The notes beneath the pieces were generated by a model, which worked only from the letters and a program-made list of their open reading frames with translations, was not told the origin of the DNA and made no database searches. 64,000 bases of DNA from Spirochaetia bacterium (GTDB taxonomy: Bacteria; Spirochaetota; Spirochaetia; CAKZLE01). Where the stretch lies: positions 3,392,001 to 3,456,000 of the forward strand of contig OY782041.1 of the NCBI GenBank assembly GCA_963677595.1, written 5' to 3'. Of the stretch, positions 34,019-59,336 are shown in pieces. Numbering within the stretch: position 1 is the stretch's first letter; every line of letters begins with the position of its first letter. Both the position numbers and the translations under genes were made by a program.

Positions 34019-34045
34019 ATCGTTAGTATACCATCCTTTGTGTTA

Positions 34046-35347: not shown

Positions 35348-35350
35348 ATG

Positions 35351-35926: not shown

Positions 35927-35981
35927 TGGTTGTTAACCTTTCTCATTAGGAATGGGAGAGCTGATGCCCCGCCTGCACCAG

Positions 35982-36009
35982 GTACAGGGAAGCCGATGCT
36001 TCCCTGTAC
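35982..36009 (-). terminator. Stem-loop after dctP
   Basis: GTACAGGGAAGC-CGAT-GCTTCCCTGTAC, a perfect 12-bp stem. Confidence 0.65.
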
Positions 36010-36028
36010 GTAGTGTGATCATTCGATA

Positions 36029-39775: not shown

Positions 39776-40246
39776 ATGCCCGAACGACTCATCGCTGTCA
39801 TACATGGACCGAACCTCAATATGCTTGGATTACGGCAGATCGGTATCTACGGTACCGGGACCATGGAGGACGTCAACCGGGAACTCGCCGCTGAGGCAGA
39901 TTCCCTCGGCTATGAGCTTGAGTTCTTCCAGTCCAACTCGGAAGGGGGGCTGGCAACCTACATCCAGCAGTGCCGGGGTCGTGTATCCGGGATCGTGATC
40001 AATGCAGGGGCCTATACCCACTATTCGGTGGCACTGCGGGATGCCATCAGCTCCTGCGAGGTGAAGACGGTCGAAGTCCATATATCGAACATCCACCAGC
40101 GGGAGAAATTCCGGCACTTCTCGATGATCGCTCCAGTCTGTGTGGGACAGATCTGCGGCTTCGGTCCCTACAGCTATATCCTGGGCCTGCGGGCCCTGGT
40201 CCGCAGGATAGAACGGACAGCCCACAGAAAAGGGGAGAACTCATGA
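39776..40246 (+). CDS. aroQ: Type II 3-dehydroquinate dehydratase (catalytically intact)
   Basis: HGPNLNMLG.R...YG, FQSNSEG, INAGAYTHYS, VEVHISNI..RE.FRH.S. Confidence 0.95.
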   Translation: MPERLIAVIHGPNLNMLGLRQIGIYGTGTMEDVNRELAAEADSLGYELEFFQSNSEGGLATYIQQCRGRVSGIVINAGAYTHYSVALRDAISSCEVKTVEVHISNIHQREKFRHFSMIAPVCVGQICGFGPYSYILGLRALVRRIERTAHRKGENS

Positions 40247-40683
40247 AGAAATACCTGGTAATATCGGGACCGAACCTGAACCTGCTCGGCCAGCGGAAGA
40301 CCTCCATTTACGGCGGTGTCTCGCTTGCCGAGATCCATGAGGAGCTCGGCAGCCTTGCCGATAAGCTCGGGGTCGAGGTCGAGACCTTCCAGTCGAACTC
40401 GGAGGGGGAGATCATCGACAAGCTGCAGGAATCCCCGGAGACCTGCGACGGCATCATCATCAATGCCGGGGCACTTGCCCACTACAGCTACTCCCTGCGG
40501 AGCGCGCTCGGGGCTACGCTGCTTCCCTGCGTCTCGGTGCAGATGTCCAATGTCTTTGCCCGGGAGGAGGAGTTCCGCCACGAATCTGCCATCGCCTCAG
40601 TCTGTGTGGGGTCGATCGGGGGGTTCGGGATGGACAGTTACCTGCTGGCCCTCGAGGCCCTGGTAAACCTGACGAAAGTATAA
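40243..40683 (+). CDS. aroQ: Type II dehydroquinase paralogue with altered active site (VSVQMSN)
   Basis: GPNLNLLG.R...YG, FQSNSEG and INAGALAHYS retained, but VEVH is replaced by VSVQ. ATGA overlap with copy 1. The true start is 40243, not 39970. Confidence 0.85.
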   Translation: MKKYLVISGPNLNLLGQRKTSIYGGVSLAEIHEELGSLADKLGVEVETFQSNSEGEIIDKLQESPETCDGIIINAGALAHYSYSLRSALGATLLPCVSVQMSNVFAREEEFRHESAIASVCVGSIGGFGMDSYLLALEALVNLTKV

Positions 40684-40693
40684 GGGGGCACAG

Positions 40694-41467
40694 ATGGTCG
40701 CAGCATGGGGACGTGTAGCAAACAGTTTCTCAGATCTTACGCAGACAGCACACGATGGGTTCGATTTCTCCCTGCCTCTCCCACGTCTTATCACAGACCT
40801 GGGGGATGATGACTTCGCACGGCTGCAGACCCTTCGTGGGGAGGAGGGAATCTCCCTGGATGTTTGCATGGTCCCGCTCCCTGCATCGATCACAGTCACC
40901 GAACCAGGGTTCAACCTCTATCTCTGGATGGAGAACCTGAAATCCCATATCTCCCGCATCTCAGCACTCGGCTGCCGTACACTCCTGTGGAACAACGGCT
41001 TCGCGAGGATGATCCCGGAGGAGGGATCGATCGCCAGGGCGAAGGACCAGGTGCTCCACTTCCTGAACCTGCTCGGCGGCATCGCCGAGGACTTCGGGAT
41101 GCAGGTGCTCATCGAGCCGCTCAGTCCGGACAGGACGAACTTCCTCAACACCCTCCCCGAGACGGTGGATTTCCTCTCCCAGGTCAACAGGCCCGCCTTT
41201 TCCTGTGCCCTCAGCACCGGGGAGTTGGATATGATCGGGCTCACCCCTGCAGACCTGGCGGGATCCCTTGATATGGTCAGCCTTGTCCTGCTGGGAAAGC
41301 CGCTCTATGCGTATGACGGGACCATCGAGCCAGGCTCCTGGGACCCTGATACGAGCCTGGCTCTCCTGGATACCCTGAAAGCTGCCGGGTATACCGGTAT
41401 GTTCTGTCTTCCTGCCGATGCTGTCGCCTCAGACCTGGTGCAGTGCCGGGAGCACTGGCGCAGCTGA
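40694..41467 (+). CDS. Xylose-isomerase-like (AP_endonuc_2) TIM barrel with degenerate metal site
   Basis: VLIEPL...TNFLNT and LKAAGYTG retained. The usual DxxH, HxH and final Glu ligands appear absent. Confidence 0.7.
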   Translation: MVAAWGRVANSFSDLTQTAHDGFDFSLPLPRLITDLGDDDFARLQTLRGEEGISLDVCMVPLPASITVTEPGFNLYLWMENLKSHISRISALGCRTLLWNNGFARMIPEEGSIARAKDQVLHFLNLLGGIAEDFGMQVLIEPLSPDRTNFLNTLPETVDFLSQVNRPAFSCALSTGELDMIGLTPADLAGSLDMVSLVLLGKPLYAYDGTIEPGSWDPDTSLALLDTLKAAGYTGMFCLPADAVASDLVQCREHWRS

Positions 41468-41543
41468 CCCTGTCTTAAAAGCAGTAAGATATCGCTTCTT
41501 TTTTACCGATTGAAGAATTTACAATTTCTTTTCTATAAGTAAG

Positions 41544-41584
41544 TTGACATGTGATATATTTGTGTTATTCTTAGATTATAATCT
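41544..41584 (+). promoter_or_regulatory. Promoter plus palindromic operator upstream of dctP
   Basis: TTGACA-16-TATTCT with TG extension, followed by the perfect palindrome AGATTATAATCT (41573-41584). Confidence 0.65.
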
Positions 41585-41658
41585 GTTTATTTTAACAGGC
41601 ATGGGTGTATTCCTGCAGGTTCTACGGGGCTCATCCATGGGAATTTAAGGAGGAAAGG

Positions 41659-42669
41659 ATGAAAAAAATTCTTATTGCTGTCGTTTTGGTTCTTCTCGTC
41701 GGGACATTCGTCTGGGCTGAAGGAACTCAGGAAGCAACTGGCCCAAAGACCTTCAAGCTGACCTATAACCAGCTCAATCCTGAAGACCAGCCGCAGGGGA
41801 TCACCGAGACCAAGTTCAAACAGAAGATAGAGGAACTCTCAGGCGGTCAGATCACGGTAGATACCTACTACAGTGGATCGCTGTTCACCCAGGAAGGAGA
41901 GGTTACGGCCATGATGACCGGGGACCTGGATATCTCGACCCTGGCCTTCCAGGATATCGCACCATACCTTCCTTCTGCTGCCATGTTCGCAGCACCCTAT
42001 ATCTTCACCAGCTATGACCATGTCAGGAATGTATGGGGACCGGATTCCGAGGTCGCACAGAAATTCTATCAGCAGGTATCGGATGCCTGCGGGTACACCC
42101 CGATCGCTGCCATGCACCAGGGCTCACGGCTCATCAACACCAAGTGGGAGACCCCGATCATGACCCCGGATGACATGAAGGGGATGGTCCTGAGGATGCC
42201 GAATGCACCATCCTGGATCGATGCAGGCGAGTCGATGGGAGGGGATGTCACCCCTATCGCCTATTCTGAGGTCTATACCGCACTCCAGACCGGTGCGATC
42301 GAAGGCCAGGATAACCCGCTGACGAACACCTATGCCATGAAGTTCTATGAGGTCACCAAGCAGATCTCCCTCACCAGGCATATCATCGATGTCAAGCTCC
42401 TCTGCGTGACCAACAGCACCTGGGAAGCCATGACTGCACAGCAGCAGGCCTGGATGAAGCAGGCAGCCCAGTATGCATGTGATGCCGGTACTCAGGCAAC
42501 CGTGAACAGTGAGAACGACCTGCTCGACTTCTACAAGGACTACGGTCTGATGATCACCTATCCTGACGTCGAGGCTTTCCAGGCACACTCATTCAAGTGG
42601 TACCAGGACAACGGCAGGACTGCAGAGTGGGACATGGACCTCTACAATGCCGTCCAGGCACTGAAGTAA
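41659..42669 (+). CDS. dctP: TRAP substrate-binding protein
   Basis: AAGGAGG RBS, signal peptide, LRMP and YSEVYTALQTGAIEGQDNP. Confidence 0.93.
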   Translation: MKKILIAVVLVLLVGTFVWAEGTQEATGPKTFKLTYNQLNPEDQPQGITETKFKQKIEELSGGQITVDTYYSGSLFTQEGEVTAMMTGDLDISTLAFQDIAPYLPSAAMFAAPYIFTSYDHVRNVWGPDSEVAQKFYQQVSDACGYTPIAAMHQGSRLINTKWETPIMTPDDMKGMVLRMPNAPSWIDAGESMGGDVTPIAYSEVYTALQTGAIEGQDNPLTNTYAMKFYEVTKQISLTRHIIDVKLLCVTNSTWEAMTAQQQAWMKQAAQYACDAGTQATVNSENDLLDFYKDYGLMITYPDVEAFQAHSFKWYQDNGRTAEWDMDLYNAVQALK

Positions 42670-42698
42670 GGTCTCCTGATAGATAAATCAACAAGGGT

Positions 42699-42729
42699 AC
42701 AGGCGCTGCGGTCCTAAGGCGGCGCCTGT
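42699..42729 (+). terminator. Stem-loop after dctP
   Basis: ACAGGCGCTGC-N9-GCGGCGCCTGT. Confidence 0.55.
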
Positions 42730-42764
42730 CCTGTACAAGGAAGTTACGAGAAAGAGGAGTCTGA

Positions 42765-43292
42765 ATGAATGTGCTAAAGAGGGTCTTTAAGTTTCTTGTG
42801 GATATCATTGAGGTGTGGGTTCCGGCAACGGTCTTCGTCGCGATGTTCCTGGTGTTCCTGGTGAACGTGTTCTTCCGGTATGTGATGAAGAATCCGCAGA
42901 ACTGGACCTATGAGTTCTCGATCAATGCCTTCGTCATCGTCGGGCTCATGGGAGCCTGTACGGCAGCCCGTGCCGAGGACCATGTCGTCTTCGACCTGCT
43001 CTATTCCAATCTCCAGCCGAAGTCCCAGAACATCCTGAGGATCATCAGCTATGCGGTCATCATCATCCTCTTCAGTATATCGCTCCCGGCGACCGTGAAG
43101 TATATCTTCAAGCTCCCGAATGTCACCTCGATCATGAAGATACCGCAGAAGATCATCTTCAGCTCATACCCGATCCTGCTTGTCTCGATGATCATCCGGT
43201 CGGCGCACAGGATGGTCCTCGATATCATCGCATTGAAGAGAAAGACCTACGCCCAAACCTACAACACTGATAAAAAGGAAGTCCTCATATGA
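42765..43292 (+). CDS. dctQ: TRAP small permease
   Basis: FRY..WTYE..HVVFD with 4 TM helices. Confidence 0.9.
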   Translation: MNVLKRVFKFLVDIIEVWVPATVFVAMFLVFLVNVFFRYVMKNPQNWTYEFSINAFVIVGLMGACTAARAEDHVVFDLLYSNLQPKSQNILRIISYAVIIILFSISLPATVKYIFKLPNVTSIMKIPQKIIFSSYPILLVSMIIRSAHRMVLDIIALKRKTYAQTYNTDKKEVLI

Positions 43293-44572
43293 GCTGGTAT
43301 ATCCTGATTCCCTTCGTGTTCCTCATCTTCGCCTTTGCCATCCGGATGCCGATCGGCCTTGGCATGATCGCCGGTTCCATCGCCTACTTCCTGATCAAGG
43401 GGATGCGGATCGGGATCCTCGTCAACGCGATCACCTATGGGCTGACCAATGCCTATATCCTGATAGCGATCCCGCTGTTCATCTTCACGGCCAACGTGAT
43501 GAACTCCAGCGAGGTCACGGACAGGATCTTCGATTTCGCACGCTCAGTCATCGGCGGCAAACCCGGTGCCACGGGCTATGTGAACATCATCGCATCCCTG
43601 ATCTTCGCCGGGATGACCGGCAGCGCTGTTGCCGATGCATCAGGGCTGGGGACCCTTGAGATCGCCCAGATGGAGAAGGAGGGCTACGATATGCCGTTCT
43701 CCTGTGCGATCACCTCTGCAACGGCAGTCATCGGCCCGATCTTCCCACCGTCGATACCCTTCGTCATCTATGCCATGATCTCCGGGGCTTCGATCGGGAA
43801 GCTGTTCATCGGCGGTATGGTACCGGCTATCATCCTGGTCATCGTCATGGGCATCTACGTCTATATCGTCTCGAAGAGACGTAATTACCCCAAGGGTGAG
43901 CGGGTAGCGTTCAAGGTCTTCATCGTCAGCACCCTCAAGGCTGTACCGGCACTGCTGACACCGGTCATCCTGCTCGCAGGTATCTATACCGGTATCATGA
44001 CCCCTACCGAGGCAGGAGCCATCGCAGCAGGCTATACCCTGCTGATCTCTTTCTTCATCTACAAATCCCTGAGCTTCAAGTCGCTGGGTACCATCCTGCT
44101 CAACACCATCCGCACGACCGGGGTCATCTTCCTCGTCATCGCCGGTGCCTACGGGTTCTCGTTCATCGTGACCTCAGAGCAGGTCTCCCGCTATGTCGTC
44201 GATGCCCTCGCCGGTGTCGTGAACAGCCCCATCGTCTTTCTCTTCGCCGTGAATATCCTGTTCCTCATCCTCGGGGCCCTCATCGACGTGAATGTCTCGG
44301 AACTCGTGTTCCTGCCGATCATCCTGCCGCTCGTGAAGCACTTCGGGATCGACCTCGTCCATTTCGGGGTCATGATCTGCCTGAACATGATGATTGGCTT
44401 GCTGACGCCGCCGTTCGGCATGCTCCTGTTCGTCACGGCCGGGATCGGGAAGATATCATTGAAACCGCTGATCAAGGAAGTACTGCCCCTGATCGGGGTG
44501 CTGCTGATCGCGCTGTTCATCATCACCTATGTACCAGAATCCGTGCTGTTCCTGACACGGCTCGTGAAATAA
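43289..44572 (+). CDS. dctM: TRAP large permease
   Basis: FAGMTGSAVADA, GPIFPPSIP, TPTEAG and TPPFG. Confidence 0.95.
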   Translation: MSWYILIPFVFLIFAFAIRMPIGLGMIAGSIAYFLIKGMRIGILVNAITYGLTNAYILIAIPLFIFTANVMNSSEVTDRIFDFARSVIGGKPGATGYVNIIASLIFAGMTGSAVADASGLGTLEIAQMEKEGYDMPFSCAITSATAVIGPIFPPSIPFVIYAMISGASIGKLFIGGMVPAIILVIVMGIYVYIVSKRRNYPKGERVAFKVFIVSTLKAVPALLTPVILLAGIYTGIMTPTEAGAIAAGYTLLISFFIYKSLSFKSLGTILLNTIRTTGVIFLVIAGAYGFSFIVTSEQVSRYVVDALAGVVNSPIVFLFAVNILFLILGALIDVNVSELVFLPIILPLVKHFGIDLVHFGVMICLNMMIGLLTPPFGMLLFVTAGIGKISLKPLIKEVLPLIGVLLIALFIITYVPESVLFLTRLVK

Positions 44573-44574
44573 CA

Positions 44575-44599
44575 CTGCCTGCCGGGTAACCGGCAGCAG
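44575..44599 (+). terminator. GNRA-capped stem-loop after dctM
   Basis: CTGC(C)TGCCGG-GTAA-CCGGCAGCAG. Confidence 0.5.
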
Positions 44600-44629
44600 G
44601 AGTGTAGGAGAGGTTTTTAGTTATTTTAT

Positions 44630-44641
44630 GATTATAATCTA
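44630..44641. promoter_or_regulatory. Second copy of the GATTATAATC operator, upstream of the enzyme operon
   Basis: GATTATAATCTA is the reverse complement of TAGATTATAATC at 41572-41583. Lies in an AT-rich spacer. Confidence 0.6.
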
Positions 44642-44686
44642 AAAGTATTTATATTATTTTTTGAGATTACCTACAGGAGGCAAGCC

Positions 44687-45358
44687 ATGGCCCATGTATA
44701 TACCAAGATCGATAGACCGGAGAGAAGCCTGATTGAGGCATTCGCGGAGTTCTCTTCTGCGACCGTGTACGAGGCATCGGGCAGGAAGGGGTCGGTGAAC
44801 CCGGCGATCAAGCCGATCGCCAAGGGACTGAGACTGCTCGGTCCCGCGGTCACGGTCAGCTGCAAGCCCAATGACAACCTCATGCTCCATAAGGCCATCC
44901 AGATAGCCAAACCGGGCGATGTCATCATCGCCGATACCCAGGGGTTCTATGATGCCGGGTACTGGGGTGACCTGATGGCAGGATCCGCCAAGGCCCGGGG
45001 GATCGCCGGGCTGGCGATCGACGGCGGGGTGCGGGACAGCGAGGAGATCATAAAGATGGGATTCCCGATCTTCTCGAGGGGATTGTGCATCCGGGGAACC
45101 AATAAGGCTGTGCTGGGAAAGGTCAACCACCCGCTGGTCTTCGGGGATGTACTCGTGAATCCCGGCGACCTGGTCCTCGGAGACGATGACGGGATCGTGA
45201 TCGTCGCAAAAGAGGATATGCTATCCGTTCTGGAAGCAACGAAGAAGCGGGTCGCCAAGGAGATCGACAAGGCCGCACAGCTGGCTGAAGGCATCCCTGG
45301 TGTGATCATCAACAAGCTGGATGCCGTCTTCGAGCGGCTGGGGCTGATAGAGGAATAA
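44687..45358 (+). CDS. RraA-like HMG/CHA aldolase (4-carboxy-4-hydroxy-2-oxoadipate aldolase, LigK/GalC type)
   Basis: SATVYEA.G, GPAVTV..DNLMLHKAI..PGDV, GYWGDLM, DGGVRD and PGD.V.GD.DG. Confidence 0.85.
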   Translation: MAHVYTKIDRPERSLIEAFAEFSSATVYEASGRKGSVNPAIKPIAKGLRLLGPAVTVSCKPNDNLMLHKAIQIAKPGDVIIADTQGFYDAGYWGDLMAGSAKARGIAGLAIDGGVRDSEEIIKMGFPIFSRGLCIRGTNKAVLGKVNHPLVFGDVLVNPGDLVLGDDDGIVIVAKEDMLSVLEATKKRVAKEIDKAAQLAEGIPGVIINKLDAVFERLGLIEE

Positions 45359-45359
45359 G

Positions 45360-46406
45360 ATGAGAGTTGATGTAGCTAATCTGAAACAGGCTATCGTCTC
45401 CCTGCTGGGGACGGTGGACCTGGAGCCCGGGGAAGCTGACGCAGTCTCGAGGATCATGGCTGAAGCTGACATGAAGGGGATCTCCACCCACGGGATCTAC
45501 TTCCTGCCGATGCTGCTCAAGCGGATCGATGCAGGGCTGGTGAAGGTGCCCACACAGGTGACGGAAGTCTCCGAGAGCGGTGCGCTCCTCCATCTTGATG
45601 GGGGTAACGGGATCGGGCAGGTCGCCGCCGAGCGTGCGATGGGCGGGGCTATCGAGAAAGCCCGTGATTTCGGGATCGGCATGGCCCTGGTGAGGAATAC
45701 CAACCATATCGGGCTGCTGGCCCATTACAGCCTGATGGCTGCCAAGGAGGGGATGATAGGCATCTGCCTCTCGAACAGTGCCCCAGCCATGGCCCCATGG
45801 GGCGGGGCTCAGGCGCTCTTCGGCACGAATCCCTTCTCCATAGCGGCTCCTGGGAATGGTGAGTTCCCAATCGTCCTCGACATGTCCACCTCCATCGTGG
45901 CTAGGGGAAAGATCAGGAAAGCTGACCGCCTGGGGGAGCGTATCCCGGAAGGCTGGGCCCTTGATGGGAGAGGGGAGCCAACGACTGACCCGTCCGAGGC
46001 CTTGAAGGGCAGCCTGCTGCCGATCGGCGGGCCGAAGGGATACGGGATGGCCCTGTTCATCGATCTCATCGGAGGCATGATCTCGGGATCGAGTTACCTC
46101 AACGATGTGAAGACCTTCCATAAACCCCTGGGCCCGACCGGTGTGGGAATGGCCGCGATCGCTATCGACATCAGTCGGTTCATGGCCCCGGAGACCTATG
46201 AGCCGCTGATCAAGGAGTATATACAGCAGCTGAAAGCTTCTCCCAAGGCACAAGGTGTCGAGCGCATCTTCATGCCCGGGGAGATCGAACTGAGCAGGGA
46301 GCAGGAAGCAGCTTCGGCAGGTGCCGAGATTGATGATGATGTGGTCGCAACGATCAACGGGCTCCTGTCTGATAAGCATATCGATGTTCAATTACGAGGG
46401 AAATGA
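45360..46406 (+). CDS. Ldh_2 (type-2 malate/L-lactate/sulfolactate dehydrogenase-like) oxidoreductase
   Basis: G..THG, DGGNG.GQ, RNTNH.G, GTNPFS.AAP, LDMSTS, PIGG.KGYG and MPGE. Confidence 0.9.
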   Translation: MRVDVANLKQAIVSLLGTVDLEPGEADAVSRIMAEADMKGISTHGIYFLPMLLKRIDAGLVKVPTQVTEVSESGALLHLDGGNGIGQVAAERAMGGAIEKARDFGIGMALVRNTNHIGLLAHYSLMAAKEGMIGICLSNSAPAMAPWGGAQALFGTNPFSIAAPGNGEFPIVLDMSTSIVARGKIRKADRLGERIPEGWALDGRGEPTTDPSEALKGSLLPIGGPKGYGMALFIDLIGGMISGSSYLNDVKTFHKPLGPTGVGMAAIAIDISRFMAPETYEPLIKEYIQQLKASPKAQGVERIFMPGEIELSREQEAASAGAEIDDDVVATINGLLSDKHIDVQLRGK

Positions 46407-48137
46407 ATGAATAGGATCTTACGTGTGAACACGCGTACCGGGGAGCTCCGGTACGTTAAGACTACTGAGAAGGAGATGCAGGAGGGCGGTCGTTCGTTCA
46501 TCGTCCATAACCTGCTGCGTGAGGTGGATCCTGCCTGCGATCCCATCGGGGGTGATAACCACTTCATCATCGCCAACGGCCTGCTGGGCGATACCAGCCT
46601 CACGACTGCCGGCCGTCTCTCGATCGGGGCGAAGAGCCCGCTGACCGGGGGCGTGAAGGAGAGCAATGTCGGGGGGAGTGCCGGGAAGGCCCTGGGGAAG
46701 CTGGGGCTCAAGGCAGTCATCCTCGAGGATATACCGGAGAAGGTGAGCTGCAGGGTCCTGGTCGTCAGAAAGGACGGGGCAGAACTCGTGGAGACGCCCG
46801 AACTGCAGGGGGTGGAGTCCAAGAAGACCATAGACGCCCTGCAGGGACGGTACGGGACAGAAGCAGCAGTGCTCTGCATCGGCCCGGCCGGTGAGTACCG
46901 GCTGTCAGCAGCTGTGGTGGCTACCACGGACCATACGGGTGTCCAGGTGCGAGTCGCCGGACGCGGCGGACTGGGGGCAGTCATGGGTTCGAAGGGGATC
47001 AAGGCGGTCGTCCTGGACAGCAAGGGGGCAACAGCCCCGAAACCGGCTGACCCTGAAGCCTTCTCAGACGTGAAGAAGCAGATCGCGAAGATCATCAGGG
47101 ATGACCCCAAGACGGAGAACCGTCACGACTACGGGACCCCGGCGGTGCTCGGGACCTGCAACGCACTCGGTATCCTGCCGACGAGGAGCTTCCGCACCGG
47201 GAGTTTCGAGCAGGCAGACGCGATCTCGGGGGATACCGTTGCCGAGCTGATCGTGAAGAGAGGCGGCGAGGGGAAGCGGGGACTGCCCTGCGTCAGGGGC
47301 TGCATCATAGCCTGCTCCAACATCTTCCCTCATCCGGACGGGAAAGCACATATCGCTTCCCTGCAGTATGAGAACATCGCGCTGCTCGGGTCGAACCTCG
47401 GGATCGGCGACATCGACGAGGTGGCTGAATTGAACGACCTCTGCAATGAGGTTGGGATCGATGCCATAGACGGCGGGGCCGCCATCGGGGTCGCCATGGA
47501 TATGGGGTTGCTTCCCTTCGGCGATGCCGAAGGTGCCAAGGAGCTCGTGCGCCAGGTCGGGCAGGGAACCGCGATGGGCAGGGTCATCGGCTCAGGTGCT
47601 GCGGTCACCGGCAAGGTCTTCGGCTCGACCCGGATCCCGACGGTCAAAGGACAGGCCATGCCGGCTTATGACCCCCGTTCACTCAAAGGCATCGGCGTCA
47701 CCTATGCCATGTCAGCCATGGGTGCGGACCATACCGCAGGGAATGCCCTGGAGACCGCGAAGTACCTCGACCCGCAGGGAACTGAAGGCCAGGTGCAGAT
47801 CTCGCACAAACTGCAGGTACGCGGAGCGATCCTGGACTCTTTCGGGGTCTGCCTCTTCCTGCGGCCAGCCTTCGTCAAGGACCCGGAGCTTGCCGCACAA
47901 CTGCTCAATGCCCGGTACGGCTGGGACTGGACCTATCGCGACGTGCGGGCGATGAGTGATGAGTGCCTCAGGGCTGAACACGAATTCAACCGGGCAGCGG
48001 GGATCGATGAGACCCGCTGTGATATCCCGGAGTTCATGAGGAAGGAGGCGTTGCCCCCTATGAATACGACCTTTGACATACCCCGTGATGAGATGCAGAA
48101 GATCTGGGAGACTGAGGTCGAGGAAGGAGTTTTTTAG
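46407..48137 (+). CDS. W/Mo aldehyde:ferredoxin oxidoreductase family protein
   Basis: KSPLTGGVKESN.GG, IGPAGE, GRGGLGAVMGSKG.KA, CxxGCxxxC cluster ligands, YDPR and GADHT. Confidence 0.92.
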   Translation: MNRILRVNTRTGELRYVKTTEKEMQEGGRSFIVHNLLREVDPACDPIGGDNHFIIANGLLGDTSLTTAGRLSIGAKSPLTGGVKESNVGGSAGKALGKLGLKAVILEDIPEKVSCRVLVVRKDGAELVETPELQGVESKKTIDALQGRYGTEAAVLCIGPAGEYRLSAAVVATTDHTGVQVRVAGRGGLGAVMGSKGIKAVVLDSKGATAPKPADPEAFSDVKKQIAKIIRDDPKTENRHDYGTPAVLGTCNALGILPTRSFRTGSFEQADAISGDTVAELIVKRGGEGKRGLPCVRGCIIACSNIFPHPDGKAHIASLQYENIALLGSNLGIGDIDEVAELNDLCNEVGIDAIDGGAAIGVAMDMGLLPFGDAEGAKELVRQVGQGTAMGRVIGSGAAVTGKVFGSTRIPTVKGQAMPAYDPRSLKGIGVTYAMSAMGADHTAGNALETAKYLDPQGTEGQVQISHKLQVRGAILDSFGVCLFLRPAFVKDPELAAQLLNARYGWDWTYRDVRAMSDECLRAEHEFNRAAGIDETRCDIPEFMRKEALPPMNTTFDIPRDEMQKIWETEVEEGVF

Positions 48138-48139
48138 TT

Positions 48140-48898
48140 ATGTCTGATTGTACGTATGATCTGTCCGGGAAACGCTGCCTGGTCACAGGGGCTTCCAGGG
48201 GGCTCGGGGAAGAGGTCGCCAGGCTGCTGATCGCAGCCGGGGCCAGTGTCGCCCTCACTGATATAGACATCAGCGGGGCCGAGAAGATTGCGAAGGAGCT
48301 CGACCCAGGGGCCGAGAGGACCCTCTGCCTTGCGCTGGATGTCTCGAAGGAGGAGCAGGTGAGCTCTGTCGTCAAGGCAGTCGCTGAGTCCTACGGGGGA
48401 CTCGATGTCCTGGTCAATGTGGCGGGAATCCTCAAGCATCTGCCTATTGACGAGATGAGCCTGCAGGACTTCCAGAGTATCCTCGACGTGAACCTCACCG
48501 GCATCTTCCTGATGTGCCGGGAGTCAGTCCGGGTCATGAAGAGGCAGGGAAGGGGTAAGATCGTTAACATCGCCTCCCTCGGCGGGGTGACGGGACGACC
48601 CGGGGTCGGGGTGAACTATGCCGCCTCCAAGTCGGGCGTCATCGGCATGTCCCAGTGCCTGGCACGGGAAGTGGGTAAGTACGGGATCTATGTGAACACG
48701 ATCAATCCCGGGCCCATCCTGACAGAACTGACCAAGGTGTACCCGGAAGAGGTCTTCGCAAAATGGAATGCTGGCAGGGCTGTCGAGAAGAACGGCCTGC
48801 CGGAGGATATAGCAAATGCGGTCCTGTTCCTTGCCTCTGACCAGTCTGACTGGGTCACCGGCGTGTCGTTGAACGTCAACGGCGGAATATTCATGTAA
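48140..48898 (+). CDS. Short-chain dehydrogenase/reductase
   Basis: TGASRGLG, VNVAG and YAASK catalytic motif. Confidence 0.92.
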   Translation: MSDCTYDLSGKRCLVTGASRGLGEEVARLLIAAGASVALTDIDISGAEKIAKELDPGAERTLCLALDVSKEEQVSSVVKAVAESYGGLDVLVNVAGILKHLPIDEMSLQDFQSILDVNLTGIFLMCRESVRVMKRQGRGKIVNIASLGGVTGRPGVGVNYAASKSGVIGMSQCLAREVGKYGIYVNTINPGPILTELTKVYPEEVFAKWNAGRAVEKNGLPEDIANAVLFLASDQSDWVTGVSLNVNGGIFM

Positions 48899-48920
48899 TT
48901 ACACACAGGAGGTTTCATAT

Positions 48921-49286
48921 ATGGCAAAGACTATAGCAGTCAATATCAAGGACGTGACGCCGGTGAAGCGTGAACCGGCCCGTACGTCATGGACGCTCGT
49001 ATCGGAGAAGACCGTCGGGGCACAGAACCTGGCGGTTGGGGTGAATGAGACCCCTGCCGGGAGCCAGGTCCCTGAGCACGAGCATAACGTGGAAGAGGAG
49101 GTCATGTTCTTCGTCGCTGGTCGCGGCCTCTTCGTCACGGAAGACCAGGAGATTCCCCTCGAACCTGGCGTCTGTGTCTACAACCCGCCGGGCGGGAAGC
49201 ACAAGATCCTCAATACCGGGGATGAGGTCCTGAGGTTCATCTGGATCTACTCGCCGCAGCTGCCCAGCCACAGGGTAGAGAAATAA
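48921..49286 (+). CDS. Cupin domain protein (metal-binding)
   Basis: PEHEH..EE.M..G.G and P.G..H cupin motifs. Confidence 0.88.
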   Translation: MAKTIAVNIKDVTPVKREPARTSWTLVSEKTVGAQNLAVGVNETPAGSQVPEHEHNVEEEVMFFVAGRGLFVTEDQEIPLEPGVCVYNPPGGKHKILNTGDEVLRFIWIYSPQLPSHRVEK

Positions 49287-49303
49287 TCAGGGAGGAGAAG
49301 ACC

Positions 49304-50272
49304 ATGTCAGATTGGAAATTCCCGCCGAAAGGCGGACATGCAGAGAGTCCTACGAAATTGTATTACCATACCATGACGAAGAGGGAGCTGGAAGAGCGCC
49401 TGAAGGTGAACGATATCATCCTGATCCCCTTTGGTTCTACCGAGAACCATGGAGACTCGCAACCGATGGGAGAGGACGGGTTCATCGCTACCAGGACCTG
49501 CGAGATGATCGCGGAACGGACCGGCTGTACGATAGCTCCTCCTATCTGGTATGCATCGCATCCGTTCTCCCATCTGGGACAGCGGTTCACCGTCCCGGTC
49601 TCGGACCAGGTCAACTCCGACTATGTCAGGGCGATCATATCGGGGTTCTGGAATGCGGGTTTCCGGAAACAGATCCTGATCAGCAGCCACGGGCAGGAGT
49701 ATATCATCCCGTCAGCCATGCAGGAGTGGGCTAAGAAGTACCAGGTACCGGCCATGCTCTTCTTCATCGATGTGTGGAAGACTGCCGGAACGGCCATGAT
49801 GGACCAGGCTCACGGGGGACCGTTCGAGACGCCGTTCCGTCATGGCGATGAGGCTGAGAACTCAGTCTGCCTCGCGCTCTTCCCTGAACTCGTGCAGATG
49901 GAGCATGCCGTGGACACGAAGACCTGGGGGTTCCTCCCCGAGGGCCATGTCGACAAGGGCGGCGACATCTACGGGCTCCCCCTTGCCGGGCAGAACCAGG
50001 TTGGAGCCGGCGGTGTAGAGTTCGCCATCTATCCCGAGGGCGTGTTGGGCAAGCCATCCCTTGCCAAGGCAGAGAAAGCCTACCAGGCGATCTCGAACTA
50101 CATGGACTATGTGGTGAAGCTCCATGACGATGTCCTGGAACGGTTCCCTGCTGGGGTGTTGCCTGAGATGAAGTATGTGACCCAGCGGGACAAGGAGGAG
50201 ATCGAGGCCCTGCTGAAGGGACCGAACGAGGAAGGCGGCAAGCATATCTGGACCGTCGCCTGGCCGTCCTGA
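49304..50272 (+). CDS. iolN: Creatininase-family hydrolase, IolN (3-dehydro-scyllo-inosose hydrolase)-like
   Basis: GSTENHG..GED, GFWNAGFRKQI..HGQE, GGPFETPF.H.DE.E, FLPEGH.DK and PEGV.GK match the Thermotoga IolN pattern as recalled. Confidence 0.8.
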   Translation: MSDWKFPPKGGHAESPTKLYYHTMTKRELEERLKVNDIILIPFGSTENHGDSQPMGEDGFIATRTCEMIAERTGCTIAPPIWYASHPFSHLGQRFTVPVSDQVNSDYVRAIISGFWNAGFRKQILISSHGQEYIIPSAMQEWAKKYQVPAMLFFIDVWKTAGTAMMDQAHGGPFETPFRHGDEAENSVCLALFPELVQMEHAVDTKTWGFLPEGHVDKGGDIYGLPLAGQNQVGAGGVEFAIYPEGVLGKPSLAKAEKAYQAISNYMDYVVKLHDDVLERFPAGVLPEMKYVTQRDKEEIEALLKGPNEEGGKHIWTVAWPS

Positions 50273-50289
50273 TAGGAAGATCCGGCAGT

Positions 50290-50313
50290 CAGTGAGCCGG
50301 TACCGGCTCACTG
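50290..50313. repeat. Perfect 24-bp intergenic palindrome
   Basis: CAGTGAGCCGGTACCGGCTCACTG. Confidence 0.85.
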
Positions 50314-50347
50314 GCCAGTCTTTTCGATTGATACAATGGTTGGACAA

Positions 50348-51379
50348 ATGAAAGCGATAGTAAAACCCAATGCCGAACCCGGCGTGTTCGAAGTAAGAGA
50401 TGTCCCGATACCGAAAGTCACCGATAACCATATCCTCGTCAAGGTGAAGGCTACCGGTCTCTGCTATACGGATGTATCCATCCTCAACGGGACCTATAAA
50501 GGAAGGAAACCGGTTCCTTATCCCCTCATCATGGGCCATGAGGGATCTGGTGTGGTGGCTGAAGTAGGGAAGGGTGCAGGCCACTTCGACCCGGGTGACC
50601 GGGTCGCCTTCGAAGCCCTGAGCGGCTGCGGCACCTGCATCAACTGCCGGAAGGGCGACAAGAACATGTGCCGCAACTGGGACCATATCGGGATCACCTA
50701 CGATGGGACCTTCGCAGAGTATATCCTGCTCCCTGCTGAACTCGTGCATCCTCTGGCCGATTCCGTCTCCTTTGCAGATGCGGCCGTGATGGAGCCGTTG
50801 AGCCTGGTGGTGCGGTCGATCAGCCATGTGCTTCCGCAGATCGGGGAGACAGCGACCATCATCGGTCCCGGATCGGTAGGATTACTGCACCTGCAGGCAC
50901 TCAAAGCCGCAGGCTGCGGCAAGATCATCGTCATCGGCCTCGATATCGACAGCCATCGCTTCGAGCTTGCCAAGAAGCTCGGCGCGACCCATATCGTGAA
51001 TGTGAGTCACGAGGACCCCGTCGAGTCTGTCATGGAGATCACCGACGGCTGGGGTACCGACATCCTCATCGAGACTGCAAGCTCCCCGAAGGTCTGGGAC
51101 TACATGGTTGAACTCCTGGCCCCGAAGGGGAGGATCTCGACCTTCGGGCTCTACCCGCAGTCGAACTTCGAGCCGCTGCAGCTGATACGGAGGGGCGTGA
51201 CCCTCTATGGGGATGTGGCATTCCTGCAGAAGCACTTCCTCCAGGGGCTCAACTGGCTCGAGACGGGAAAGGTCTCTGGGGAGGCACTCATCACCAAACG
51301 GTACTCGCTTGATGATGCGGCACAGGCATTCGAGGACTTCAGGGCAAAAGAGACGGTGAAATGTCTCTTTGAGCTGTAG
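50348..51379 (+). CDS. Zn-dependent (MDR) cyclitol/polyol dehydrogenase
   Basis: GLCYTD, GHE, CGTCINC..C and GPGSVG. Start at 50336 or 50348. Confidence 0.9.
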   Translation: MKAIVKPNAEPGVFEVRDVPIPKVTDNHILVKVKATGLCYTDVSILNGTYKGRKPVPYPLIMGHEGSGVVAEVGKGAGHFDPGDRVAFEALSGCGTCINCRKGDKNMCRNWDHIGITYDGTFAEYILLPAELVHPLADSVSFADAAVMEPLSLVVRSISHVLPQIGETATIIGPGSVGLLHLQALKAAGCGKIIVIGLDIDSHRFELAKKLGATHIVNVSHEDPVESVMEITDGWGTDILIETASSPKVWDYMVELLAPKGRISTFGLYPQSNFEPLQLIRRGVTLYGDVAFLQKHFLQGLNWLETGKVSGEALITKRYSLDDAAQAFEDFRAKETVKCLFEL

Positions 51380-51394
51380 AGAGTAGGGGAAGGT

Positions 51395-52534
51395 ATGCTG
51401 AAGAGGGACGAGCTGTTCGACAACGAGCTGCTGGGTCAGCTCCTTGAGGAGGGAAATATCGATCTCCTCCTCGTCTCCTCACGGCATAACGTCCGCTACC
51501 TGACGGGGGGGTACTTCTTCCCCCTCTTCGTCTGGGACACCAATACCCGGGGGACGCAGTACCTGCCGTTCATCGGGATCCCGCAAGGGAGGACTGACGA
51601 GTCGTTCTTCATCGGCAGACCCTGGGAGAAGGGAGTCCTGGAGGATGCGGGGGTCTGGATCTCTGACTGTCAGGAGACCCCGACACTCGGGATCGAACCT
51701 GCGGTGGAACTGCTTGCTGAGACAGTCACGACACGCGGGTTCGCTTTAGCATGCATCGGGGTCGAGATGACGGTCCTCCCTGCGGAGGCCTACCTCCTCC
51801 TCAAGAGACTCCTCCCGCATGCACAGTTCGTGGACTGCACCCCGGTCATGGACAGCCTGCGGGCTGTCAAGCACGAGCGGGAGATCGACATCATCCGGCG
51901 CGGGACGCTCAAGAACCTCACTACCGTGAATGATGTACTCACCTCCGTGGTCCCAGGGATGACCACCAAGGAGGTGGCTGATGCCGTAGCTCAGGGCTAC
52001 CGGGAGAAGGCCATCCACTTCCTCTATGCACTCGTCTGTGCAGGCCCCTCGTTCTACCGGGCGGCCTCCGAGCATATACAGCTGAAAGAGGGACATATCC
52101 TCCAGATCGATACGGGGGCCTTGGAAGAGGGGTATACCGTCGAGACCTGTCGGACCGGACATCTGGGAGAGCCTACGGAAGAGGCACAAACCATGCTCGG
52201 GCTCTGCAGGGAGCTCGAACACCACATGCTGCCTTGGTTCACCCCCGGTATGATGGCCTCTGCCATCCAGCAGGAGGCTGACAGGTTCCTGGGAGAACGG
52301 GCTTCCCCATTCAGGGGGAACTTCATCGCCCACGGTATCGGCATGATCCATCATGAGAAGCCCGTGATCAATGCGACTTCCAACGAACGCCTGCAGGAAG
52401 GCATGGTCCTCTCCCTGGAGATGGAGCATTTCTCCAAGTCTACCGGGCACGTGAAGATCGAGGACATGGTCGTGATCAGGGGTGACGGGGTGGAGATCCT
52501 GAGCCCAGGCGGCAAGAGATGGAACCATGGATAA
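51395..52534 (+). CDS. M24 (Xaa-Pro peptidase/creatinase fold) metallohydrolase
   Basis: NVRYLTG, LRAVK..E, ID.G...GY..E..RT, HGIG..HE.P, LE and IED. Confidence 0.82.
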   Translation: MLKRDELFDNELLGQLLEEGNIDLLLVSSRHNVRYLTGGYFFPLFVWDTNTRGTQYLPFIGIPQGRTDESFFIGRPWEKGVLEDAGVWISDCQETPTLGIEPAVELLAETVTTRGFALACIGVEMTVLPAEAYLLLKRLLPHAQFVDCTPVMDSLRAVKHEREIDIIRRGTLKNLTTVNDVLTSVVPGMTTKEVADAVAQGYREKAIHFLYALVCAGPSFYRAASEHIQLKEGHILQIDTGALEEGYTVETCRTGHLGEPTEEAQTMLGLCRELEHHMLPWFTPGMMASAIQQEADRFLGERASPFRGNFIAHGIGMIHHEKPVINATSNERLQEGMVLSLEMEHFSKSTGHVKIEDMVVIRGDGVEILSPGGKRWNHG

Positions 52535-52760
52535 GGGGACTGGTATCACGATAGAGCTCAAGGCCCCGATGAACAAACAGGTACGATCCGGTACCTATAC
52601 TGCAGCTGAAGGCAGTACGGTAAGCGGATTCTTGAGCTCTCTTGGTATCGGTGATTTGTTAGATTACCTGGTCCTGATTAACGGCAGGCCGGCTGAAGGA
52701 TCATCAACCCTCAAGGACGGGGACGAGCTGCAGCTCCTGCTGCTGCTCAGCGGCGGGTAA
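52527..52760 (+). CDS. moaD: MoaD/ThiS sulfur carrier
   Basis: 77 aa, ING..LKDGD..LSGG C-terminal diglycine. Co-operonic with the AOR. Confidence 0.85.
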   Translation: MDKGTGITIELKAPMNKQVRSGTYTAAEGSTVSGFLSSLGIGDLLDYLVLINGRPAEGSSTLKDGDELQLLLLLSGG

Positions 52761-52766
52761 GGTCTG

Positions 52767-53423
52767 TCACCAGAGCCTGTTCACGAACTTGCTTGCCTGG
52801 GTGAGGTGCTGCACCATCTTCTCGGAAGCCTGCTGCTGGTCCCCTGAAAGGATCGCATTGAGCAGTTCAAGGTGTTCTCTCAAGACATCGTGGTAGCGTC
52901 TCTTCGTGAATCGTTCGCCGATGAAGTTGCGGATACGCAGGGTCCGGTCCATGAGCTGGCTGTATATCTTGTTCAGGGACTCGTTCTCCAGGGAACTGAC
53001 GATCGCCATATGGGTGGTCTCTCGGGTACCCCACTCGATGGACTGCTCATCAAGGTCCTCGGAGGTGGCAAGCATCACCTGCAGTTCATCACGCAGTGCC
53101 TGCAGTTCCTCATTCCCGCCTCTCGCAGCAGCCCTGGCCGCTACGCTGGACTCGATGATCTCCCTGATCTCGTAGATATCACGGATCTCGTTCTGCGTGA
53201 TGTTGGAGATGATGGAACCGCGTCCCGGGAAGTTCTCGACGAAGCCGTTCTGTTCCAGTTCACGAAGTGCTTCCCTGATGGGGGTCTTGCTCACACCCAG
53301 GTTCTCGGCCAGGATGGCTTCGTTGATGGGCATCCCGGGCTTGAGCTCATTGCTGATGATCTTCTGCTTCAGGGTCTCATAGACTTGTATCTTCTTGTTC
53401 TTCGTCTTATTATAGATATCCAA
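52767..53423 (-). CDS. GntR/FCD family transcriptional regulator
   Basis: LKPG..INE..LAE.LGVSKTPIREAL..L...G.V...PGRG plus an FCD-type C-terminus. TTG 53423 is the likely start. Confidence 0.9.
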   Translation of the reverse strand: MDIYNKTKNKKIQVYETLKQKIISNELKPGMPINEAILAENLGVSKTPIREALRELEQNGFVENFPGRGSIISNITQNEIRDIYEIREIIESSVAARAAARGGNEELQALRDELQVMLATSEDLDEQSIEWGTRETTHMAIVSSLENESLNKIYSQLMDRTLRIRNFIGERFTKRRYHDVLREHLELLNAILSGDQQQASEKMVQHLTQASKFVNRLW

Positions 53424-53663: not shown

Positions 53664-54914
53664 TCAGCCGTCAAGCCCAAGGCTGACTCTCACGGAGAGT
53701 GCATCGATCGGCCTGTCGCCGATGTTGAGGCCGTACTCCCTCCAGTAGTAGCTTGCATCCACATGGAAGATGAGCAGGTCAGCCCCGACCCCTGCTGAGA
53801 GGTAGCCCTTGTTCATGCCGGCCCTTACATCGAGGAGGGAGAGCAGCTTCACCTCAGCACCTGCTGAGAGGTGCTTCCAGAGGGCATTGGGGTCACTCTC
53901 ATAGGTCTCTGCCAGTCCCAGCACGTCATCCAATCCGACTGCGATCCTCGGGTTGAGTATGGATGCGAGGCCGCCCCTGACAGGTGCCCAGCCAAGGCCG
54001 AGGTCCACACTCCAGGGGACTGCCGCGGTGAACGTCGAACTCGTCGCTGCCTCGTCGGTATCGATATAGACCGCGTCTGTCCCGGCAAGGGCTGCCAGTT
54101 CGTTCAGCCATGCGCCAGCCTCGCTGTAGCGGGTGATCGTGTAATCCCCGTTGAGGTTGCGCAGGACACCGCTGAGCCGAAGCCCGACAGGTCCGTTCAC
54201 GTTGACCCCGACATCGATAGGAAGCGCGTAGCCTGCTGCCAGTTCGTAGTTCGCGAGCAGGTCACTGGTGATGTCTTCTGACCCGCTCATGACGGTGGTG
54301 AGGATGCCTGAAGCGCCGATGGAATCAGAATAGGCTGTATAGGTCGGCCGTGCCGTGACGCCGGCATCGATCGAGAGAAGATTGTCTACCAGGGGCAGCG
54401 AGAACCCGATACCAAGGGCCGCGGAAGCGTTGAGCTCAGCGACCAGGTTGAGGCCGGCTCCCGTCCCGACGGTGTGCAGCTTCTCCTGCAGGTTGACGCC
54501 GAAACCGAAGCCGCCGCCGGCAAAGCCGACAGAGAGATCCGTGGTCAGCAGTTCACCGCGGGATGCGGTGATGGTATCGAGGAAACTGAGGGCGACCGTC
54601 TCATCGACGGTCCCCGCGAGCACCTCCTCGATCAGCCCGGAGTCCACGATGTTCTTGACATTGTAGGCAGTGAGCGTGAGGCTCGGGAGGTAGAGAGAGA
54701 AGGGCTGCCCGGCAAGATTCGCCGGATTCTCATAGAGTGAGTCTAGGCCTGTGGAGGAGGAGACTCCAGCCCCTCCCATGGCCTCGACACGGGCGCTTGT
54801 GGGTGAGAATGAGGTCCCTGAGTAGAACGGTTCAGGGAAGTCCGACTCTGCAGCAAGGTTGAATGCAGAGATGCCAATAAAACTTATAAGCAGCAGTATG
54901 GTAATTCTTTTCAT
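53664..54914 (-). CDS. Putative outer-membrane beta-barrel (TraF/FadL-like N-terminus)
   Basis: Signal peptide, SAR.EAMGGAG...LY.NPA.L motif and amphipathic strands (LDVRAG..GYLSAGVG.DL). Confidence 0.65.
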   Translation of the reverse strand: MKRITILLLISFIGISAFNLAAESDFPEPFYSGTSFSPTSARVEAMGGAGVSSSTGLDSLYENPANLAGQPFSLYLPSLTLTAYNVKNIVDSGLIEEVLAGTVDETVALSFLDTITASRGELLTTDLSVGFAGGGFGFGVNLQEKLHTVGTGAGLNLVAELNASAALGIGFSLPLVDNLLSIDAGVTARPTYTAYSDSIGASGILTTVMSGSEDITSDLLANYELAAGYALPIDVGVNVNGPVGLRLSGVLRNLNGDYTITRYSEAGAWLNELAALAGTDAVYIDTDEAATSSTFTAAVPWSVDLGLGWAPVRGGLASILNPRIAVGLDDVLGLAETYESDPNALWKHLSAGAEVKLLSLLDVRAGMNKGYLSAGVGADLLIFHVDASYYWREYGLNIGDRPIDALSVRVSLGLDG

Positions 54915-57734: not shown

Positions 57735-57758
57735 ATTTCCAATCCTTTTTATCTATGA

Positions 57759-59321: not shown

Positions 59322-59336
59322 GTATTCCCTCTTGTC

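Follow-up and report, generated by a model that had tools for sequence, protein, structure and literature searches.

The gene cluster and its layout

The window analysed here, meaning the whole 64,000-nucleotide stretch from position 3,392,001 to 3,456,000 of contig OY782041.1, comes from a Spirochaetia genome held in a single contig of 4.33 Mb (GCA_963677595.1, hereafter G000), and its subject is a run of 15 co-oriented open reading frames (ORFs) with a convergent GntR gene. At a rough probability of 0.6, we read this cluster as degrading quinate, and shikimate by way of the dehydroquinase AroQ, without oxygen and without aromatic intermediates, by hydrolytic ring opening to CHA (4-carboxy-4-hydroxy-2-oxoadipate). 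A first-pass annotation of this DNA had described such a cluster; all 16 genes were found, open and free of internal stops, and Pfam and NCBIfam scans support the family name it had given to each. The run is not a chance one: its order recurs in related loci.

39776..40246, plus strand: AroQ1, type II dehydroquinase (Pfam/NCBIfam, catalytic residues)
40243..40683, plus strand: AroQ2, second type II dehydroquinase, likely a pseudo-enzyme (residue alignment)
40694..41467, plus strand: TIM-A, AP_endonuc_2 ketose-epimerase-like barrel, degenerate (profile and residue alignment)
41544..41583, plus strand: promoter-like site (41544-41571) and palindrome GATTATAATC (41574-41583), candidate GntR operator
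41659..42669, plus strand: DctP, TRAP binding protein (family profile, R179)
42765..43292, plus strand: DctQ (family profile)
43289..44572, plus strand: DctM (family profile)
44630..44639, no strand assigned: the palindrome again, upstream of the aldolase gene (exact-copy scan)
44687..45358, plus strand: HMG/CHA-type class II aldolase of the RraA family (profile, structure match, residues)
45360..46406, plus strand: Ldh_2, 2-hydroxy-acid dehydrogenase (family profile)
46407..48137, plus strand: aldehyde:ferredoxin oxidoreductase of the tungsten AOR family (AFOR domains, likeness to solved AORs)
48140..48898, plus strand: SDR (family profile)
48921..49286, plus strand: single-domain cupin, Cupin_2 (profile, invariant residues)
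49304..50272, plus strand: IolN-like creatininase-family hydrolase (NCBIfam IolN model, metal residues)
50288..50315, plus strand: 12-pair hairpin with a T-rich tail, terminator-like, between the hydrolase and Zn-dehydrogenase genes
50336..51379, plus strand: Zn-dependent dehydrogenase (profile), not an IolM orthologue
51395..52534, plus strand: M24/creatinase-fold hydrolase, accessory (family profile)
52527..52760, plus strand: MoaD/ThiS sulfur carrier (profile, C-terminal GG)
52767..53423, minus strand: GntR-FCD regulator (profile), its start uncertain, the open frame extending to 53648

From the aldolase gene to the MoaD gene the cluster is compact, with neighbouring genes -8 to 63 bases apart; wider spacings, of 191 and 114 bases, divide aroQ1-aroQ2-TIM, dctPQM and the core from one another, and probably split the run into three units. 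Terminator-like hairpins were no more frequent in our scan than in shuffled sequence. The first-pass annotation had also claimed that the window holds no other aro biosynthetic gene, which agrees with whole-genome searches that place no aroB, aroC, aroD or aroE there (not every ORF of the 64 kb was scanned), and no ring dioxygenase, of which none was identified among the 16 cluster genes, the one LigB-family gene of G000 lying outside the window.

The conserved core and a predicted route from quinate to CHA

The loci compared comprise 20 genome loci, the best 80 of 446 confirmed metagenome loci and further genome stretches. There are 117 loci with an IolN match, 108 of them at 43% identity or more (the window included) and 9 distant, and the 28 loci of at least 18 kb were reduced by greedy clustering at 95% to 24 representatives, the long loci of the counts below. 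A core of RraA-family aldolase, Ldh_2, AOR, SDR, cupin, IolN-like hydrolase and Zn-dehydrogenase is conserved across spirochaetes, NC10, Thermodesulfobacteriota and metagenomes, the host taxa being of anaerobic habit; in the genome comparison the closest relatives of the window's hydrolase come from metagenome-assembled genomes of spirochaetes. The co-occurrence with the IolN-like hydrolase that had been anticipated is borne out, RraA being present at 21 of the 24 long loci, Ldh_2 at 23 and AOR at 22, beside cupin at 23 and SDR at 16. Of the six loci that have no AOR, two carry an NAD-linked aldehyde dehydrogenase (L028, L094), two break off shortly past the hydrolase and two lack an explanation. 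The smallest clusters (L115, L116, L119, L120) hold exactly seven enzymes, matching the seven steps that we predict. In even genome samples per phylum, the IolN model was passed by 5 of 401 genomes in the phylum of G000 (2 of them above 460 bits), 11 of 251 in that of G402 and 8 of 251 in that of G403.

The end of the route is suggested by the aldolase, which scores above the cut-off of NF006731 (226 against 179 bits) and below that of the LigK model TIGR02798 (216 against 304.5). Its best match among solved structures is the Pseudomonas putida HMG/CHA aldolase 3noj (E 1.6e-48, residues 6-220 aligning without a gap), and N71, H75, G101, R123, D124, G144, T145, K147, R195 and E199 are invariant in all 54 cluster aldolase homologues; position 40 is R in 49 and K in 5, and D102 is variable, with D in 8, the window's among them. 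In passages of PMC5065237, R123 is assigned to catalysis and D124 and E199 to metal binding, with N71 and K147 the proposed binders of the C5 carboxylate of CHA. The aldolase is predicted to catalyse the last step. At the other end, the hydrolase passes the IolN model NF041098 (468 against 245 bits) and keeps the creatininase metal site (E47, H49, D58, H129, H180, E185); it is the predicted ring-opening enzyme.

Between these two points, the proposed route would run as follows. Quinate would be imported by the TRAP system, and the SDR and the Zn-dehydrogenase would oxidise C3 and C5 to give 3,5-didehydroquinate (C7H8O6), a 2-hydroxy-1,3-diketone whose ring the IolN-like enzyme would hydrolyse to an acid with a CO-CH2OH end (C7H10O7). 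The cupin would isomerise this ketol to a 2-hydroxy-aldehyde, the AOR would oxidise the aldehyde to C7H10O8, Ldh_2 would oxidise that product to CHA (C7H8O8), and the aldolase would split CHA to pyruvate and oxaloacetate; shikimate would join through AroQ, the quinate route leaving at 3-dehydroquinate. In this scheme C1 of quinate, with its OH, its COOH and its two CH2 neighbours, would become C4 of CHA unchanged, and CHA would amount to quinate after cleavage of its C3-C4 bond and oxidation of three carbons (C7H12O6 + 2 H2O -> C7H8O8 + 8[H]). The sequence of two ring oxidations and then hydrolytic opening is modelled on the Thermotoga inositol route and is to be taken as an analogy. Comparative genomics and residue conservation support the substrate class, the hydrolytic opening and the CHA end point, and to that extent the quinate/shikimate ring-cleavage idea of the first-pass annotation survives, with aroQ demoted to an accessory; no refuting outcome named there arose in the checks that sequence comparison allowed. 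The exact order of steps as drawn is rather less likely than not.

The individual assignments are of graded strength. The AOR has both AFOR_N and AFOR_C domains and strong likeness to solved members (9mqx, E 1.7e-69; 1aor, E 1.1e-66) and is predicted to carry out the aldehyde-to-acid step; AORs are O2-sensitive, and the MoaD/ThiS protein likely serves the AOR cofactor. The SDR of the window has an acidic residue after the second strand, which in this family is the rule for an NAD-type cofactor, and is predicted to be a ring dehydrogenase, with the Zn-dehydrogenase as the predicted second ring oxidation; in a count over 40 long loci, the SDR is absent from 11. The cupin was compared with the cupin ketol isomerases (PGI, PMI, D-lyxose isomerase) and their 3His-1Glu site; its H53, H55, E59 and H94 are invariant in 51 of 51, and ketol isomerase is its tentatively predicted role. 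Its model (pLDDT 95.8) has as top folds the DddK lyase (Z 16.6, rmsd 1.7, 115 aligned), TM1287 and TM1459 (both Z 16.2), with phosphomannose isomerase at Z 15.7 (rmsd 1.8, 107 aligned). An O2-dependent diketone or acireductone dioxygenase is an unlikely identity for a cupin with an AOR as neighbour, and the cupin was also rejected as a DPGC, an enzyme that belongs to the cyclase family. Atlas searches with the cupin and the M24 protein returned generic families only. The first-pass annotation had found a role for most genes; the M24 protein, present at 7 of the 24 long loci, proved accessory and is given no part in the predicted pathway.

The same substrate and end point could also be served by another division of labour, in which the cupin would be a ring tautomerase, a dehydrogenase would make a 2-oxo-aldehyde from the CH2OH end, the AOR would give CHA directly, and Ldh_2 would reduce oxaloacetate or pyruvate and so regenerate NAD+. 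Ldh_2, which we predict to form CHA, could indeed act in this reductive sense instead: its gene begins 1 base after that of the aldolase, and its family includes malate and lactate dehydrogenases by profile annotation. Moreover, the cupin is linked to the hydrolase (its gene lies immediately upstream at 86 of 95 loci) rather than to the AOR. However, this arrangement requires three alcohol dehydrogenases and the minimal clusters have two; we regard it as unlikely, and whatever weight it carries sits within the 0.6 given above.

R179 of DctP aligns with the Arg of the SiaP motif and is kept in 11 of 11 close homologues, so that DctP likely binds a carboxylate; its nearest solved relatives are 4pf6, the ligand of which we take to be KDO, and sialic-acid binders. 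The palindrome GATTATAATC occurs in exact form 3 times in G000, twice within the cluster, before dctP and before the aldolase gene; comparable palindromes occur 0 to 35 times in this genome. With at most 1 mismatch it precedes the aldolase gene at 5 of 64 loci, dctP at 5 of 69 and the GntR gene at 2 of 49, against 2 of 331 control regions. GntR homologues usually precede the aldolase gene at related loci, and we consider the palindrome a candidate GntR operator. It was also seen upstream of core or TRAP genes in L009, L010, L012, L020, L038, L042 and L056.

The dehydroquinase genes and the alternatives

The link to quinate and shikimate comes from the company that the core keeps. A dehydroquinase or shikimate dehydrogenase gene (aroQ, aroD or aroE) lies within about 10 kb at 14 of the 24 long loci, at 12 of these without aroA, aroB, aroC or aroK; the figure is 9 of 19 for loci of at least 14 kb after 90% de-duplication, and 30 for all 108 loci, many of which are short, against a background of 42 in 4306 20-kb windows of G000 (about 1%). 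The occupants of this slot differ, among them the AroQ pair, a single AroQ of another subfamily, a type I AroD (L084) and several AroE types. The expectation that aroQ itself would be conserved beside the cluster elsewhere holds in part: a dehydroquinase or shikimate dehydrogenase recurs, and aroQ is, as judged from gene content, an accessory that is sometimes plainly biosynthetic and is found at none of six Thermodesulfobacteriota loci. AroQ would be needed only for shikimate, which fits this patchy presence, a fit made after the fact.

In G000, the cluster pair are the sole aroQ genes, and the aromatic biosynthesis genes, a 486-residue AroDE fusion, aroB and aroC, lie elsewhere. Similarly, a type I dehydroquinase is encoded away from the cluster aroQ pair in G404 and G405, and G401 has a second aroQ. 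By gene content, then, the cluster aroQ genes are surplus in all four genomes, because the reaction is covered by a type I dehydroquinase elsewhere (G000, G404, G405) or by the second aroQ (G401).

Several observations weigh against our reading and have to be set beside it. No aro gene is found in the flank at 10 of the 24 long loci, or within 15-20 kb at any of the six Thermodesulfobacteriota genome loci (L115-L120), and 4 of the 5 Thermodesulfobacteriota genomes checked have one aroE, elsewhere. L061, L063, L064, L081 and L108 adjoin a biosynthetic aro operon, and G075, which has no aroD and carries a second aroQ-TIM module away from its cluster, may for the former reason use its aroQ for biosynthesis. 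The loci are related, so that the counts are not independent events. No copy of GATTATAATC precedes aroQ1 in the window, and the transporter type varies widely among loci. On the enzymatic side, the exchange of SDR for a Gfo dehydrogenase is weak, a Gfo or second Zn-dehydrogenase being present at 8 of 11 SDR-less loci but also at 13 of 29 SDR-bearing ones; the cupin fold is no nearer to isomerases than to lyases, since lyases, isomerases and uncharacterised cupins fall within about 1 Z unit; and 3,5-didehydroquinate should tend to lose water to give gallate.

Three of these points, namely the 10 long loci with no flanking aro gene, the missing operator before aroQ1 and the aroQ-TIM module standing alone in G075, favour a rival in which the core would break down some other polyhydroxy carboxylate, cyclic or branched (a stereoisomer of quinate, or an acid resembling a 3-deoxy-ulosonate), the product being a 4-hydroxy-2-oxo acid, with the aroQ module as a separately regulated neighbour. 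The solved relatives of DctP point the same way, as does the replacement, at some loci, of the usual Zn-dehydrogenase by an intact second TIM barrel and another Zn-dehydrogenase. We nevertheless hold this account to be rather improbable: several unrelated dehydroquinase and shikimate dehydrogenase types recur at differing positions, far above the 1% background, and the CHA-type residues of the aldolase are invariant.

In a further rival, the ring would be opened from the unsaturated side, either after oxidation of 3-dehydroshikimate to the gallate tautomer or with gallate as the substrate, to 4-oxalomesaconate, which a hydratase would convert to CHA. AroQ would then be on the main path, and some clusters do include aconitase X (L060, L078, L087), PrpD (L022, L037, L103) or an amidohydrolase (L061, L064). 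However, no such hydratase is present in the window or in the minimal clusters, a PrpF/GalD tautomerase was not found in a genome search of G000 (95% complete), and AroQ is absent at many loci, which leaves little room for this variant. Taken as observations in their own right, the tricarboxylate hydratase-type genes in or beside those six clusters fall outside our model.

The module at the 5' end of the run bears on the aromatising route, and it is where the first-pass annotation, which had listed two aroQ genes and a TIM barrel, needs correction. AroQ1 keeps every catalytic residue (R20, Y25, N76, H82, D89, H102, R109, R113), and Arg19, Tyr24, Asp88 and His101 are retained in 12 of 12 AroQ1-type copies, the roles of these residues in type II dehydroquinases being given in passages of PMC6011038; AroQ1 likely admits shikimate by hydrating 3-dehydroshikimate. 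AroQ2 has Ser in place of Asp88 in 15 of 15 copies and, in place of His101, Phe in 14 copies and Gln in the remaining one; it retains the six further active-site residues that were checked (one copy is truncated at Arg19), and we consider it likely to be a conserved pseudo-enzyme. TIM-A has lost its metal-ligand Asp and has Pro for the last Glu in 14 of 14 copies; it is likely non-catalytic. The metal motif of TIM-barrel dehydroshikimate dehydratases is Glu/Asp/His/Glu, which was checked here against an epimerase alignment, and the other TIM barrels have this site complete, in 10 cases of 10. TIM-A scores 28 bits against the IolO model NF041099 (cut-off 300) and is nearer to ketose epimerases than to AsbF, to which the match is faint (E 0.0017). 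As a dehydroshikimate dehydratase it is not credible, and the lost ligands together with the ketose-epimerase likeness argue against aromatisation.

AroQ2 and TIM-A travel together behind an intact AroQ1 (window 40243-41467; L136:9550-11263; L108:3716-5606). TIM-A accompanies AroQ2 at 14 loci and never occurs without it, AroQ2 being without TIM-A at 3; in a 401-genome sample of the phylum, TIM-A is matched strongly in two genomes alone, G000 and G075, and weakly once in G246. G075 encodes AroQ1 and AroQ2 as a fusion, in one instance among housekeeping genes away from the cluster, and searching at order level around this genome brought no further cluster to light (1 of 17). Possibly the three proteins form a regulatory or sensing module. 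A predicted complex of 3 AroQ2 with TIM-A scored 0.56 (runs of 0.56, 0.01 and 0.61), against 0.01 for the best control; the partner pLDDT was 82 or higher, and the runs had 30% or more of their contacts in common. Of 157 solved pairs 116 attain the mark applied, and of 215 mismatched pairs 2; at 0.60 or less, it is attained by 18 of the 157 solved pairs and by both mismatches. This gives weak support to such a complex, on which the pathway reading does not rest.

The placement of aroQ beside an AP_endonuc_2 barrel resembles the qui and qsu operons, and together with the faint AsbF match it suggests the classical route, in which AroQ and the barrel as dehydroshikimate dehydratase would give protocatechuate for cleavage to CHA. 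Listeria QuiC2 is treated in passages of bioRxiv 2025.04.08.647683. Against this stand the missing Asp and last Glu of TIM-A, the lack of an identified ring dioxygenase among the cluster genes (the sole LigB-family gene of G000 is far away, with a 4,5-DOPA dioxygenase as its best match, below cut-off) and the fact that hydrolase, AOR and cupin would be left without a role; we give it very little credence.

The hydrolase's database name implies a Thermotoga-type inositol pathway, and here the family models and the tree are informative. The window's Zn-dehydrogenase falls below the IolM model NF041097 (203 against 450 bits; true IolM proteins score 524-570), and no IolM above the cut-off was found in G000 or among the four cluster Zn-dehydrogenases tested. 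A quick maximum-likelihood tree was built from 69 hydrolases (loci of at least 11 kb plus four added, shorter ones dropped). In it, the window's hydrolase lies in a 55-row clade with SH-aLRT 100, every locus of which has at least one of RraA, Ldh_2, AOR and cupin, and the three loci with both IolM and IolO above cut-off (L128, L132, L133) lie outside it; none of the 9 distant IolN loci has RraA, AOR, cupin or aro genes. By this tree the clade is separate from true inositol IolMNO clusters. An inositol pathway is accordingly a very slim prospect, despite the passed IolN model and the IolG-like Gfo genes at many loci (the two tested fall below the cut-off, at 154 and 147 against 355), since the window has no intact IolO, the CHA aldolase needs a branched carbon that inositol does not have, and DctP keeps its carboxylate-type Arg.

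Neighbours, variants and relation to known systems

The surroundings of the cluster contribute side observations. Two minus-strand genes at 53664-56023 of the window (416 and 370 aa) have no Pfam match at E 1e-6, the second with a lipoprotein-like start. They are followed at 56259-60411, also on the minus strand, by a run of aldehyde dehydrogenase, thiamine pyrophosphate enzyme and 2-hydroxyacid dehydrogenase genes, not met beside the cluster at other loci, and then by a betaine-type binding protein on the opposite strand. Upstream, a TRAP system with a DHDPS-family gene and a GH106-like protein (3433-10521) includes the closest paralogue (41%) of the cluster DctP, and another TRAP system with a Zn-dehydrogenase lies at 32966-37054. 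A URO-D gene upstream of the cluster was rejected as an orthologue of the URO-D genes that adjoin other clusters, its identity to them being 22-26%; tblastn gave 9 hits in G000. Elsewhere in G000, three further creatininase-family paralogues (L109-L111, at G000:C1:1819250, 2746928 and 2215074) each have an SDR close by, in two cases together with Ldh_2 and TRAP genes, and probably mark other catabolic clusters; nothing in this genome closely matches the Gfo dehydrogenase found at related loci (best 29-31%).

Related loci vary in composition as well. Suggestive neighbours include esterases (L009, L010), two PEP (phosphoenolpyruvate) carboxykinase families and an isocitrate-lyase-family gene; acyl-CoA dehydrogenases stand beside the clusters of L011 and L019, and a flavin ene-reductase beside that of L019. 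As speculation, the esterases, acyl-CoA dehydrogenases and ene-reductase might handle the caffeate half of chlorogenate. A Chloroflexota variant (L023, L025, L129) has hydrolase, AOR, cupin and a 304-aa protein with no Pfam or NCBIfam family, and no RraA in view; L023 and L025 add Ldh_2, fumarase-like subunits, a CoA transferase and an esterase, and L023 and L129 a malic enzyme. In L007, L028, L071, L083, L084, L088 and L092-L094, an intact TIM barrel and a second Zn-dehydrogenase type replace the usual Zn-dehydrogenase, which suggests isomerase-assisted entry or other stereoisomers.

Stated in full, the proposal is of a widespread anaerobic pathway that would turn quinate and shikimate into pyruvate and oxaloacetate with no need of O2, CoA or aromatisation, in which inositol-type hydrolysis and the gallate-pathway aldolase are joined through a cupin and a tungsten AOR, and a heteromeric AroQ1/AroQ2/TIM assembly of one enzyme and two pseudo-enzymes gates the entry of shikimate; in that complete form we would call it an even bet. 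Quinate and shikimate are abundant plant acids. If the quinate reading is true, the cluster supplies candidate genes for a fermentation so far known only from physiology, opens a way to the CHA aldolase that needs no O2 and gives an AOR a defined place in catabolism; the label "3-dehydro-scyllo-inosose hydrolase" would also be wrong for many of the proteins that now bear it. With seven defined enzymes and a predicted mass for each intermediate, the pathway is open to in vitro work. Close homologues carry the names Oscillibacter valericigenes and Thermovenabulum gondwanense, which are possible cultured hosts. A gene-level description of the cluster or route was not found in the open literature (most subscription papers were outside the search), and we provisionally regard the pathway as undescribed at that level.

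The aerobic hydroaromatic qui/qut/qsu pathway employs quinate dehydrogenase, dehydroquinase and dehydroshikimate dehydratase. With it the cluster shares a dehydroquinase, a TIM-barrel neighbour and, at related loci, a shikimate dehydrogenase beside a transporter; in contrast, the barrel here has lost metal ligands, the dehydroquinase is dispensable and the predicted branch leaves at 3-dehydroquinate. Quinate and shikimate are reportedly fermented by Ilyobacter insuetus and Propionivibrio limicola (Brune et al. 2002, via passages of PMC10512730 and PMC2822220), a physiological precedent; neither organism was among the 120 homologues listed of 895 or the listed members of 10 clusters. The anaerobic phloroglucinol pathway PGR-DPGC-TfD-TAL, as set out in parts of PMC10470551, likewise relies on O2-free retro-Claisen hydrolysis of a cyclic 1,3-diketone near an SDR. 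According to the same source, however, DPGC is of the "cyclase" family and not a creatininase or cupin, entry is reductive, and a second cleavage falls to BKACE; the family scan identified neither a cyclase-family DPGC nor a BKACE lyase among the cluster genes.

Closest in ring chemistry is the Thermotoga IolGMNO pathway, with which the cluster shares an IolN-family hydrolase, a Zn-dehydrogenase and often a Gfo, and the same predicted logic of two oxidations and then hydrolysis. In Thermotoga, IolM and IolN oxidise a cyclitol to a 2-hydroxy-1,3-diketone and hydrolyse its ring to an acid that carries a CO-CH2OH end; the pathway IolG-IolM-IolN-IolO of Thermotoga maritima was reportedly assigned by Rodionova and colleagues in 2013 to TM0411-TM0416. 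The intermediates of that route are listed in passages of PMC5931981. Our cluster differs in that its hydrolase is in another clade, in having no IolM or intact IolO, in its predicted substrate, a branched carboxylate, and in adding CHA aldolase, Ldh_2, AOR, cupin and aro genes. With the LigK/GalC lower pathway of protocatechuate 4,5-cleavage and gallate degradation (3noj; passages of PMC5065237), it shares the active-site residues of the aldolase and therefore likely its final reaction, which gives pyruvate and oxaloacetate. Unlike that pathway, the cluster has no identified dioxygenase, PDC hydrolase or OMA hydratase, nor G000 a PrpF tautomerase, and CHA here would form without O2 or an aromatic ring. 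The cluster thus resembles the Thermotoga ring cleavage joined to the LigK/GalC step, yet it is a member of neither pathway.

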